Assembly: GCA_038087875.1 (NCBI GenBank)
Contig: CM075994.1
Location: 3,970,001-4,030,000 of the forward strand
Source: Malacoraja senta
Taxonomy: Eukaryota
Length of the DNA: 60,000 bases
Direction: 5' to 3'
Below, one piece after another: positions 45,401 through 54,400 of the stretch. The notes beneath the pieces are model-generated. The model did not search any database and was not told where the DNA came from. It saw only the letters and a program-made list of their open reading frames with translations. Position numbers and translations under genes: made by a program. Every line of letters starts with the position of its first letter. Position 1 is the first letter of the stretch.

Positions 45401-48400
45401 TCAGTTCCTGTGGATTGGAGGATAGCTAATGTTATCCCACTTTTCAAGAAAGGAGCGAGAGAAAAAACGGGGAATTACAGACCGGTTAGCCTGAATTCTG
45501 TGGTGGGAAAGATGCTGGAGTCAATTCTTAAAGAGGTGATAATGGGGCATTTGGATTAGTCCAAGTGAACGTGGATTTATGAAAGGGAAATCATGCATGA
45601 CTAATCTTCTGGAATTTCTTGAGAATGTGACAAGTAAAATGGATGAAGGGGTGCCAGTGGATGTAGTGTATCTAGACTTTCATAAAGCCTTTGATAAGGT
45701 CCCGCACGGGAGACTGGTGACTAAAATTAGAGCACATGGTATTGGCGGTAGGGTGTGGACATGGATAGAAAATTGGTTGGCAGAACGGAAGCAAAGAGTA
45801 GCAGTGAACGGGTCCTTTTCAGAATGGCAGGCAGTGGCGAGTGGAGTGCCGCAAGGCTCGGTGTTGGGGCCGAAACTGTTTCCCATATATATTAATGATT
45901 TGGAAGAGAGAATTAGGGGCAACACTAGCAAGTTTGCGGATGACACAAAGATGGGTGGCAGTGTGAACTGAGAAGAGGATGTTAGGAGGTTGCAGGGTGA
46001 CCTGGACAGGTTGAGTGAGTGGGCAGATGCGTGGCAGATGCAGTATAATATAGATAAATGTGAGGTAATCCACTTTGGCGGCAAAAACAAGGGGGCAGAT
46101 TATTATCTCAATGGGGTTAGGTTAGGTAAGGGGGAGGTGCAGCGAGACCTGGGTGTCCTTGTACACAGGTCACTGAGCGTTGGCTTGCAGGTACAGCAGG
46201 CAGTGAAGAAAGCTAATGGAATGTTGGCCTTCATAACAAGAGGATTTCAGTTTAGGAGTAAAGAGGATGTTCTGCAATTGTATAGCGCTCTGGTGAGACC
46301 ACATCTGGAGTATTGTGTACAGTTTTGGTCTCCTAATTTGAGGAAGGACATCCTTGTGATTGAGGCAGTGCAGCTTAGGTACACGAGATTGATCCCTGGG
46401 ATGGCGGGACTGTCATATGAGGAAAGATTGAAAAGACTAGGCTTGTATTCACTGGAGTTTAGAAGGATGAAGGGGCATCTTATCGATACATATACAATTA
46501 TAAAAGGACTGGACAAGCTAGATGCAGTAAAAATGTTCCCAATATTTGGCGAGTCCAGAACCAGGGGGCCACACTCTTAGAATAAAGAGGTGGTCATTTA
46601 AGACTGAGGTGAGAACCAGAGAGTTCTGAATTTATGGAATTCCCTGCCACAGAGGGTAGTGGAGGCCAAGTCACTGGATGGATTTAAGAGAGTGTTAGAT
46701 AGAGCTCTAGGGGCTAGTGGAGTCAAGGGATATAGGGAGAAGGCAGGCACGGGTTATTGATAGGTGACGATCAGCCATGATCGCAATGAATGGCGGTGCT
46801 GGCTCGCAGGGCCGAATGGCCTCCTCCTGCACTTATTTTCTATGTTTCTGTATATCTAACTCATACAAAGTACTGACTGAACTTTTACAGTAGCCCTCTT
46901 TTGCTTAATCCACTGGCTAACCACCATACCCTTGGAGGCAGCCTGAATGGTAATGGTTGCATACCTCATTGACTGATATTCCACAAACTGGGAATGCCCT
47001 ATTTTGCATGCTTTGTACCATCTCTGGATCGAAATGGCTGCTTCTAGAATAGCTCTGTAGCGTACCCTTGATCGGTAACCACGGTATGCAGCTTGCAGAA
47101 TGACTACAGCTGCCTTTTGCATCAAGAAATGTTTTCTTGTAATGCACATCATTAAGACGGATTTAATATGGCATGCTGCCTTGATTTTCTCAACCCATTC
47201 TCTGGCTTTAATCCCGCGGTAGAAGGCCTGAACACAAACCACTGCTTTTCTCAAACTATTATAATGTCTCACTTGGATAACTCTTCTCTGGAAAGCTCTG
47301 TATCGTTGCTGTACCGCAACGAAAGACCAGCGTAGTTTCTTGAAATACTGACGCTGTTTATGCATCTGATAATAAGTCTGTTTGACCTTGGCGGATTTGT
47401 GCATGCACCGCAATTGCTTTCGAACAAGCATTCCTCGGTAGGTAGCCTGAAGCAGCACAACGCTTCTGCGTGCCTTCATGTAAGTCTTCCCATCACTTTC
47501 CATTTGCAGGTGTGCCCTTTAATGGGTTTGTACTATTATAGCTGCTAATTTCATTTCCATGTATGGACGGTATACTCTGTGCCTCCTAAATCTGGGCAAA
47601 AATGAAAAAGGGCCACTTTTCAACATAATTGTATAAGGGGTAAGAATGTTGTAAAAACAAGCCTGAAGGCTTTGTGTCTCAATGCAAGGAGCACTCGTAA
47701 TAAGGTGGATGAGTTGAATGTGCAGATAGCTATTAATGACTATGATATAGTTGGGATCACGGAGACATGGCTCCAGGGTGCCAATGCTGGGAGCTGAACA
47801 TCCAGGGATATTCGATATTCAGGAGGGATAGACAGAAAGGAAAAGGAGGTGGGGTAGCGTTGCTGGTTAGAGAGGAGATTAACGCAATAGAAAGGAAGGA
47901 TATTATCTTGGAGGATGTGGAATTGATATGGGTAGAGCTGCGAAACCATAAGGGGCAGAAAACGCTAGTGGGAGTTGTGTACAGGCCACCTAACAGTAGT
48001 AGTGGAGTTGGGGATGGCATCAAACAGGAAATTAGAAATGCGTGCAACAAAGGTAAAACAGTTATAATGGGTGACTTCAATCTACATATAAATTGGGTGA
48101 ATCGAATTGGCAGGGGTGCTGAGGAAGAGGATTTCTTGGAATGTATGCGGGATAGTTCTAATTGGGTATTGAGTAATGAGGAAGGGTTAGTTAGCAGTCT
48201 TGTTGTGCGTGCCCCCTTGGGCAAGATTGACCATAATATGGTTGAGTTCTTCAATAGGATGGCGAGTGACATACTTAATTCAGAAACAAGGGTTCTGAAC
48301 TTAAAGAAAGGTAACTTTGAGGGTATGAGATGTAAATTGGCCAAGATAGACTGGCAATTGATTCTTAAAGGGTTGACAGTGGATATGCAATGGAAGGCAT

Positions 48401-51400: not shown

Positions 51401-54400
51401 TTGACTTTGAAGGAATAGTGAATAATGCATAACATTCAAACAGTGCTTTTATTGTGAAGGATTTCACTCGTCAGGCTTATCAGCCGATGGACTCCGGTGC
51501 CTCCTCGACCTCTCGGATTCTCCAGAGCTTCTCCCAAGGATACTGTTGCTGCTGGCCACTCCGGATCTCCGCTGCTAACGCTGATCCGTTGCTGTTGCCT
51601 CCGCTGTTCCACCGCTGACTTGCCTGCCAAGTCGACTCCGCGGCGCGGCCTCACTCTGCTGGCTCCCGCTGCTGGTCCCGCTGGTCGGCTCGTCGCTGGC
51701 TCTCCGGCCCGCCTGGCTGCTGCTGGTCCCGCTGCTCGGCTCGTCGCTTGCTCTCCGGCCCGCCTGGATGCTCGGCTCGTCGGGACTCTACCCCGCTGCC
51801 GGGGGCTCGGTAAACGCTGTGTCCCGCTTCTCACGCGGGGTCTGGTCCGCTTCTCACTCGCCGTCGGCTCTCTCACTCGGCCGGTTCCGCTTCTCTCTCG
51901 CGGTAGGCTTTCCCACTCGGCCGGTCCGCTTCTCTAGCGCGGCCGGACCCTCTTTTCTGGTCATGGTCGGGCTGACTCTGCTCCCGACCGGGCTTTCCCT
52001 GCTCGCGGTCGTCTCCTGCGACCGGGCTTTCTCCGCTCACGGCCGACTCTTGCGACCGGGATTTCTCTCACAACCGGGCTGACTCTGCTCCCGGCCGGGC
52101 TGACTCCGTTTTCATCGGTGGCTTCTCCGGACCTGTCCGCTGCCTGCACGGTACCAGGCCCTCACCCGACGTCTGTGGCTGCTACTGGGGCTGGCCGTGG
52201 GCAACACGGTCCTCTTTCGTCGGTGGCTTCTCCGGACCTGTCCGGCACCTGGAACTCACCCGAAGTCGGTGGCGGCTGCTGGGCCTCTTCTGCCCCTTTG
52301 CCGTGGCTGCACGACTCTGGAAAGCGTTTCAGGTAAGTTGACACGTCGCTGTCCTGCTGGTTAGGCTTCCAGCTTTCGGCTGAGTTCCTCGTTGACACTT
52401 ACTTACTGCCCCACTTGTTTTCCTTGCGCACTTGCTTCCTGTTCCGACCTTCTTTTCTTTGGCGCCAATTCAAATCCATTTGGCGCCAAATCATTTTGCT
52501 TGGTGCCGTTCCAATTTGTTTCCAAACACAACCTCTTCTTTTTAACTTGTTTTTTCTTGACAGCCCTTCTTCTTTGTTCTTTTATCCTCGTCGCCAATTG
52601 TTGTGTGTTCTGGTGTAACAATTCACCTAAAACGTAGCTGTACAAGGACTATTCAGCTTGAGGAATTCGACAACAAAACTCGGTCTAAAATGTGTAACAA
52701 TCCGAAGGACGACATCTTGCCACATAGACACAACATAGACATAGCCTGACAAACCCGCCGACTTGTACATCTGATGTTTTAAACTACAGTCCCTTGCATA
52801 GAAGGATCTGCTGGCCTCTCATGTCCAGCTCGCAAACAACTGCGGCACAACTCCGTATTTACTGTTTAAACTATTAAACAATACTGCGTGTTGCAAAACA
52901 GTCCTGCGCTGTATTTAAAGGATGAGTTCACAAACACTATCCCATCCTCGTCGCCAATTGTTGTGTATTTGGGTGCTTGGAACTGACTTAAAAGAACTCT
53001 CAGATACGGGTGTAAACTAACAAGCTTCTGTATTCCAGGACGCCACCTTGAGTCTCCCCCAACGCATGCGTCCCCTCGCACAAGACATAACATATGCTGA
53101 TTATATCACATACATCACAGTGAGCGTGGAATTTATTGGCATGTTTATTGGCATGTAGAGAGGCCAGTCTTGCGTTAAGTAAAGATGAAGTGCTTCATTC
53201 GTTATTGCTTGATGCGCATCTGACGTTTATGCTTTCGGATGCCCTATATATAACCTCAATGGTATGCGACATGTAGAAGGAGAGAAAACGAATTTAATTA
53301 ACACAAAAAAAGAAATATGTTGGCAATAACGATAACAATTATTAACTTTCCTTTAAATGAAAGCCTGCAAATAAGTTTAAATGAATCCCAAACCATGCAA
53401 TATATAACTAGGTGGCAAGGATACGTGCTCTATCTCTCCCTTTGTTTAGTCAACATGTTTTACTACATGCATGCTTTCCTGTTTTAGTCCGTGTAGCAAA
53501 TTAATGTTCTACCATTTTAATATATGATTCAATCTCCTAAAATAAGGTTTACCAATATTCCGATGAGATTGTGGGAAAGAATATTGCAATGTGATTTTCT
53601 ATCAATTAAAAAGAGGTTTCATCTATTTTACTCTTTATTAATCTTTGGTTATAACACAATGCCGTTGATATTATTTTCAGAATCTTCATCTGCAAGAGGT
53701 AATATTGATAGTTGCACTGGTGCATTTATTTCTATTGATATTTCTATTATTTCTATTTCTATTGCTCTTACTTCAAACGAGATACTTTAAATGTTGTTGG
53801 CGAAACTCCCACGGGTGCATCACGGTGAATAGAATGCATTAACTACGTTTCGAAACTCTTATAAAATTCATTTCCTAATCGTGTGGAAATAAATTTGATA
53901 AAACTGGATTTCATATAATATTTCTTTCATAAATGCTGTTGACTAACTCCAGGACGTTTGCTTATTTCAGAAAATACTTTCCTGCGGATCCAACTTGGTA
54001 CGGTTTTATTGAAGAAAAATGACATAATTATCACTGATGCTCATCAATCCTGTTGTCATTAAAATTTAAGTTTAATTAACTATGTGCACGTGTCGGTGGC
54101 CGAGTCTTCGATCAGCATTTTGGAGCATTTATATTTTTTCTAATAATTGAGATTAATTGGCTCTGGTATTCATGGAAGCAGATGGTACCGCAATTGTCAA
54201 GGGTTGCATAATATTTTAGTCAATAGGCATGTCGCATTTTTCTTCCATTTCGCACAAAATAGTAGGCTAGTAGGATAGTATTTTCTTCTCACGATTTGGA
54301 ACATATTAATCGCAAACAACGTATTTTTCTTTCGGGAAATATGACTCACAAACTTCATGTATTTATTCCGAACAAGCTAAAAATCTACAATGCCCCTCTC

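Follow-up and report, generated by a model that had tools for sequence, protein, structure and literature searches.

Structure of the locus

The DNA analysed is a 60,000-nt window of the Malacoraja senta genome (assembly GCA_038087875.1, contig CM075994.1, positions 3,970,001-4,030,000), and all coordinates below are window positions. Its minus strand carries the 5' part of a long terminal repeat (LTR) retrotransposon of the Ty3/gypsy group joined to a piece of the spindle gene ASPM. The order, read from the letters, is LTR, two primer-binding sites (PBS), a leader, the start of gag, a 21-bp repeat and an ASPM region encoding IQ motifs. The features are the following, in the direction of the element.

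52959..53119, minus: 5' LTR, 161 bp; its ends agree with the integrase motifs of Mag C, TGTNATRT ... AYANAACA (Table 3 of PMC3601003), and the excess of contig depth stops at its 5' end
52939..52956, minus: primer-binding site 1, two bases past the LTR
52791..52938, minus: first leader stretch, with contig depth as high as that of the LTR (site 52873)
52599..52790, minus: second LTR-like module; similarity to the first LTR is confined to its last ~30 bases, and its 5' limit is uncertain
52584..52596, minus: primer-binding site 2, with 13 bases in common with site 1
51470..52400, minus: leader rich in GC and CpG (66% G+C, CpG observed/expected ratio 0.93), containing short repeats both in tandem and dispersed
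51110..51460, minus: AT-rich stretch holding a 50-bp duplication at 51334-51444
50813..51105, minus: Ty3/gypsy (Mag-like) gag start, ~85 codons and a short linker; 35-46% identity to the first open reading frames (ORFs) of PBS-selected loci, 79% to the little skate protein model XP_055489032.1
50643..50796, minus: 21-bp tandem repeat, 7.3 units, encoding heptads in the IQ frame; ~13 units in XP_055489032.1
50525..50640, minus: ASPM-derived piece A, delimited by alignment to stingray ASPM
47592..50524, plus: younger CR1 long interspersed nuclear element inside the ASPM piece, with a 6-bp target duplication; absent from XP_055489032.1
46856..47591, minus: ASPM-derived piece B, 243 codons with Pfam IQ motifs and one stop (47519-47521), delimited by alignment to stingray ASPM
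43200..46855, plus: second CR1, which ends the ASPM piece; 5' limit approximate

An earlier reading made from the sequence alone had named an LTR-like end, PBS-like sites and a GC-rich leader, and each of these was found at its place on the minus strand.

The IQ region derives from ASPM

The top named protein matches of the IQ part are ASPM proteins, the best being stingray ASPM (P0035), in agreement with the identity proposed by the sequence-only reading. When the two pieces were aligned separately, 50640-50527 corresponded to stingray ASPM residues 2597-2634 (24/38 identical) and 47590-46862 to residues 2634-2876 (152/243 identical). They are contiguous on stingray ASPM, covering residues 2597-2876 of 3576, that is ~280 codons at 63% identity. 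The CR1 between them is flanked by the same 6 bases at 50525-50530 and 47586-47591, and its removal does rejoin the IQ array, as had been claimed. Piece B has a single stop in the ASPM frame, versus 15 and 10 in the other two frames. Over a comparable stretch, the window matched stingray ASPM at 110 of 168 residues, and whale shark ASPM matched it at 110 of 168 as well.

No other part of the gene is present: a tblastn search with six ASPM proteins found only the two IQ pieces in the 60 kb, and the full domain set and multi-exon structure of an ASPM ortholog were not found in the window. The IQ motifs of the element are in register with batoid ASPM, but they represent only ~8% of the protein, and the microtubule-binding, CH and C-terminal domains are missing. 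Human ASPM has 28 exons, of which exon 18 encodes residues 1356-2940 of 3477, and 81 IQ repeats (PMC10436222; the extent of exon 18 is also given in PMC374243). Judged by the distance from the C-terminus and with the human exon limits, the ASPM piece would lie inside the equivalent of this giant exon, so that no intron loss is visible.

Stingray and manta ASPM (P0035, P0107, P0108) contain three similar 219-residue units at approximately residues 2140-2795, each made of three 73-residue higher-order repeats. This expansion of the IQ array may be specific to the myliobatiform lineage. Since stingray ASPM holds these three units, the register of the first ~100 residues of the captured piece is ambiguous. 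In-frame loss of one unit was considered, XP_055489032.1 matching stingray unit 2 at 67/94 and unit 3 at 59/94; the contiguous mapping was kept, because in two other rays the units score almost equally.

The 5' part belongs to a Mag-type Ty3/gypsy element

The gag-like open frame spans 51106-50813. For an independent test of its nature, 26 metagenome loci were chosen by the string of LTR end and PBS alone, a string which also precedes gag ORFs in such loci. In six of the 26, the fragment had a match in the ORF that comes first after the PBS (E from 5e-11 to 2e-7), and in two further ones a weak match; the best reached 49 bits, versus at most 24.3 bits in 30 shuffles. One of the matching ORFs also carries protease, reverse transcriptase and RNase H. 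The similarity stops after ~85 codons, where intact gags go on. ESM Atlas features of the piece fell in DUF7041 and Retrotrans_gag clusters (scores 0.90-0.96). A PDB sequence search was empty, the viral contigs searched gave no match, and a single-sequence AlphaFold model (pLDDT 60.5) gave only generic four-helix matches, with Z up to 6.9 and none at E < 0.001. On the strength of these similarities the segment is the start of a Ty3/gypsy gag, and the gag N-terminal fragment of the sequence-only reading (50813-51091) is upheld by homology to the gag starts of PBS-selected loci. The LTR-end motifs, the PBS directly behind the LTR and the gag homology all point to the Mag clade, pol being absent from the window.

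The 21-bp array is in frame with the first IQ motif, and the junction between repeat and ASPM lies at ~50640, plus or minus ~15. In this copy the gag frame is broken by a stop at 50813-50815, closely followed by a frame change; in addition, the remainder of gag is not in the frame of the ATG at 51105. The proposed fusion of gag, repeat and IQ array is therefore correct for the repeats, which run in frame into the IQ motifs, but not for gag, which in the window copy is out of frame with them.

A second record of the fusion

The same arrangement was found in XP_055489032.1 (P0032), a RefSeq gene model of the little skate annotated as ASPM homolog, isoform X1. Its 290 residues form one open frame, which starts at a methionine matching the gag start and proceeds through ~13 heptads into IQ motifs, continuing across the site of the window's first CR1 without a CR1. 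It is 79% identical to the window in gag and 31/38 and 48/57 identical in the two IQ pieces, levels that identify it as another copy. It ends ~185 codons short of the window's ASPM piece. The annotation as ASPM homolog is likely to reflect either misannotation or a transcribed copy.

This record could also be taken to mean that the family is, or includes, a domesticated gene under selection, made of gag domain, heptads and IQ motifs, of which the window copy would be a dead satellite. The open frame of 290 codons starting at the gag methionine would suit such a gene, as would a repeat unit with a length divisible by three, which preserves the frame when unit numbers differ, and XP_055489032.1 is closer to stingray ASPM (59-67/94) than the window copy is (54/94). 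However, XP_055489032.1 is a computed gene model that lacks the last ~185 codons of the window's ASPM piece, forms a cluster of one member and has no relative in protein searches. Moreover, a neutral frame of 290 codons stays open with a probability of 0.001-0.23 per copy at 3-7% drift, so that a few open ones are expected by chance among 100-300 copies, and XP_055489032.1 alone is no evidence of selection. A domesticated gene is thus considered unlikely.

The element is repeated in three organisms

The contigs of four of the 23 listed public runs, none of them from organisms C, E, F, G or H, were aligned to the window at 85% likeness. Depths in X1, X3 and X10 (organisms A, B and D) were expressed relative to the flank bin 53283-53500. 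The fourth run, X19, was excluded from these ratios, its kind being uncertain and its flank bin (49.2) disagreeing with its long contigs (3.5-12.4).

ASPM bins were covered at 133-303 times the flank, the bin of the repeat/ASPM junction at 133-220 times and gag bins at 87-173 times. Values were 8-169 times in the leader, 317-466 times in the second LTR-like module and 584-983 times in the LTR bin (52829-53055). The suggestion that the element may be multicopy is supported by the gag and ASPM parts, at 87-303 times flank depth in the three runs. Contigs of the unique flank (2.7-3.6 kb; depth 6.5, 19.4 and 31.2) have their start at the 5' end of the LTR or slightly within it, which shows that the amplified unit is bounded by the LTR. 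In X10 and X3, they carry 255 and 385 other letters in place of the element, which fits an empty site. Contigs in X3 and X10 continue beyond 46861, i.e. other copies extend further than the one in the window.

The chimera might have arisen once and then been multiplied by another vehicle, such as tandem or segmental duplication, a DNA transposon or Helitron, or CR1-driven transduction, with LTR and gag as passengers. In line with this, no 3' LTR was seen in the window and depth differs from part to part (8-983 times the flank), ASPM bins being deeper than gag bins. Yet the excess ends at the 5' end of the LTR, next to a unique flank. Depth in the LTR is 2-5 times that of the interior, a ratio expected from paired and solo LTRs, and the flank contigs of X10 and X3 fit an empty site. 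Another vehicle therefore appears very unlikely.

Forty of 700 difference sites were available, 18 of them in the ASPM part; three pairs share a codon and were scored singly. Thirteen of the 18 are private to the window copy, eleven of these change the residue and seven of the eleven lead away from the stingray residue; two others are polymorphic. At the remaining three (47479, 47496 and 47500), the window letter accounts for at least 98.7% of depth in X1, X3 and X10 and encodes the residue seen in XP_055489032.1, and the other letter is absent or near flank depth. At two of these three sites the rare letter encodes the amino acid found in all three stingray proteins. The simplest reading is that the sites are a shared-derived signature of one capture, with one parent gene standing against a hundred or more descendants.

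X19 showed only the ASPM-gene-type letters at these sites, at a depth of 438, the run being of uncertain kind. Its LTR was shallow relative to the ASPM part, unlike in X10 of the same organism.

The ASPM-part contigs listed differ from the window copy by 7-14%, and for the unique flank the difference is 0% in X1 and 8-10% in X10 and X3. From these similar ranges, the burst would be approximately as old as the split between the sampled organisms. For scale only, two skate genera are reported to have separated ~34 million years ago (PMC12361510), a figure which sets no date for the burst.

A probable single capture followed by retrotransposition

Taken together, these data make it very probable that the window holds a dead copy of a non-autonomous, Mag-type Ty3/gypsy family of skates, which captured part of ASPM once and was then multiplied en masse by retrotransposition. 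On the 5' side, host sequence lies inside an LTR element and replaces part of its ORFs (LTR, PBS, truncated gag, then ASPM). Further rounds of retroposition are indicated by the depth of 87-303 times flank and by the three diagnostic sites common to the bulk of the copies, the window copy and XP_055489032.1, from which we infer dispersal. The transduction of part of ASPM by a non-autonomous element, suggested by the sequence-only reading, is thus supported by the ASPM identity, by the order in XP_055489032.1 and by depth. Where that reading had allowed for a single-copy junction, the same gag-heptad-IQ order recurs in XP_055489032.1, and coverage is deep in three runs.

Several observations weigh against this interpretation. 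The ASPM piece contains no exon junction, so that an RNA origin is not demonstrable from it. A second LTR, which the sequence-only reading had proposed to look for, was not found elsewhere in the window, where CR1 cuts the copy, local alignment scores being at the level of shuffles; nor was a polypurine tract, a 3' LTR or a target duplication of the element seen there. Pfam detected gag in the gag piece only below threshold. XP_055489032.1, in a cluster of one member, was the sole fused protein that protein searches returned. Summed contig depth, which gives an order of magnitude and no copy number, dips to 8-49 times flank in 51467-51920. Among the 32 contigs shown of ~432,000 pieces, none crosses the repeat/ASPM junction (50640), so that the multiplicity of the junction rests on similar depth on either side and on one gene model. 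Finally, the listed joint that skips the CR1 has a depth of 20.9 in X3, 86.4 in X10 and 0 in X1, many joints being uncounted; because of this low depth it may derive from the parent gene, and it does not prove that most copies lack the CR1.

Insertion of the LTR element into a solitary ASPM duplicate, processed or segmental, at this locus only, or else a chimeric assembly, would agree with the lack of a listed read-level bridge over the junction, but is hardly credible, being largely refuted by the same order and junction in the separate record XP_055489032.1 and by an ASPM piece at more than 100 times flank depth in three organisms.

Under single capture and retrotransposition, the following course may be proposed. 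The ASPM IQ fragment, which lies in sense orientation, would have been captured once, replacing the rest of gag and probably pol. Capture may have occurred by template switching onto ASPM mRNA co-packaged in a virus-like particle, a route that we slightly favour; otherwise read-through, or capture at the DNA level from the giant exon, would account for it. LTR-mediated gene capture is established in flies, fish, chicken and mammals, according to PMC5131818. Having kept LTR and primer site, the chimera could have relied on autonomous Mag elements for packaging and for copying in trans. Its spread, to a number on the order of 100-300 per genome, would have taken place at about the time when the sampled species split, or earlier. 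After insertion, the window copy would have decayed by frame changes, stops, CR1 insertions and loss of its 3' end. By its sequence this copy is dead: it has two frame changes (one close to where gag begins, one ahead of the repeats), two stops (50813-50815 and 47519-47521) and two CR1 insertions, and its 3' end is lost.

The fusion of gag, heptads and IQ motifs might also be translated and useful, and for that reason have out-amplified ordinary retrocopies; or ASPM fragments, present by the hundreds, might feed small RNAs against ASPM, and one or several open copies, XP_055489032.1 for example, might be young genes under selection. We regard these ideas as doubtful. If they were true, a capsid N-terminal domain would bring a calmodulin-binding IQ array onto helper particles or disturb their assembly, and LTR-driven sense and antisense ASPM fragments would constitute a transposon-borne regulator of a spindle and brain-size gene in skates.

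Comparison with known elements

In the animal LTR-mediated retrocopies treated in PMC5131818 (Tan et al. 2016), which include HERV-K/FAM8A1, a partial, sense-strand host coding sequence replaces part of the internal ORFs, as in the skate element. Those chimeras are likewise non-autonomous, can retropose again and are often in frame with the parent protein (PMC5131818). In contrast, the cases described there are single loci or occupy few sites, and for the present element the depth suggests at least 100 copies in each of the three organisms. The hallmarks used in that paper are both LTRs and microsimilarity at the switch points, whereas the skate element is known from its 5' side alone. It also differs by a 21-bp repeat at the 5' switch point. 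The maize element Bs1, as presented in PMC5131818, is a plant element of 1-5 copies that drew on three parent genes, versus one parent gene and a far higher depth for the present element in a vertebrate.

The skate element resembles the Mag C clade by its LTR end motifs and LTR length (161 bp, against a training mean of 174 in PMC3601003), and by a gag N-terminus homologous to that of elements with the same string of LTR end and PBS. It differs by the lack of pol in the window, a gag cut after ~85 codons and two PBS modules. The distance from PBS to gag, 1.5-1.85 kb, compares with 11-88 bases in most intact PBS-selected loci.

In the gag-onc fusions of acutely transforming retroviruses, a truncated gag is in frame with a fragment of a host gene and the genome depends on a helper, as in the skate element. 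The latter differs in being Ty3/gypsy, with no env seen, in its germ-line amplification and in showing no sign of transforming activity.

A literature search found no description of this element; most subscription papers lay outside its reach, and a Repbase or Dfam entry is possible. ASPM was not mentioned in the text or the 12 supplementary files searched of the skate genome paper PMC12361510, one scanned PDF being unsearchable. Such capture has precedents, and those cited have one to few copies; what is new is the scale, the in-frame gag-repeat-IQ design and the ASPM cargo.

Many datable replicates of one capture, spread over several species, would make it possible to ask whether a cargo helps, hinders or does not affect its element. 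The family could also show whether the parent gene becomes a target of small-RNA silencing through the cargo, and with what frequency fusions turn into genes. ASPM is a much-studied spindle and brain-size gene, and the annotation of copies as its homologs, as with XP_055489032.1, can mislead orthology assignment, read mapping and estimates of expression for ASPM in skates.

Primer modules, leader and CR1 insertions

The 60 kb contain the 11-base primer-site motif at 52956 and 52596 and nowhere else. Primer-binding site 1 is putatively of the tRNA-Ser type; a literature search that included one preprint did not confirm the tRNA type. The second PBS module was considered as a copy of the first LTR and rejected: beyond the last ~30 bases the alignment score was 64.9, versus 55 +/- 6.5 in shuffles (maximum 81.5). 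This LTR-like module is probably an internal relic. The presence of two primer modules, the second less deeply covered than the first, suggests a second recombination, in which one family would have received at its 5' end the LTR and leader of another, more numerous one. A 12-bp direct duplication is located at 53132-53156, 12 bases outside the 5' end of the LTR, and the flank contigs of two other organisms lose alignment in the middle of it.

The leader had no Pfam family in the five frames tested, no match to the PBS-selected loci and no Rfam family. Its 66% G+C and CpG ratio of 0.93 (51470-52400) have been retained despite the age of the copy, and splice-donor-like sites are visible by eye near 52404, 52262 and 52166. 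From its composition it could possibly be a CpG-island promoter. In a 78-codon leader frame (52165-52398, minus), a short stretch is, as we presume, like another gypsy-type gag start; it gave no Pfam or locus match.

Beyond the second CR1, no ASPM, pol or LTR sequence resumes in the window. Both CR1s hit the ASPM piece within 750 bases, and both have short microsatellite tails that resemble their target sites. The second (43200-46855) retains part of an esterase-type ORF1, which also matches 36682-37175. A 78-bp tandem repeat (37786-38165; 4.9 units, 98% identity) adjoins a CR1 ORF1 region.

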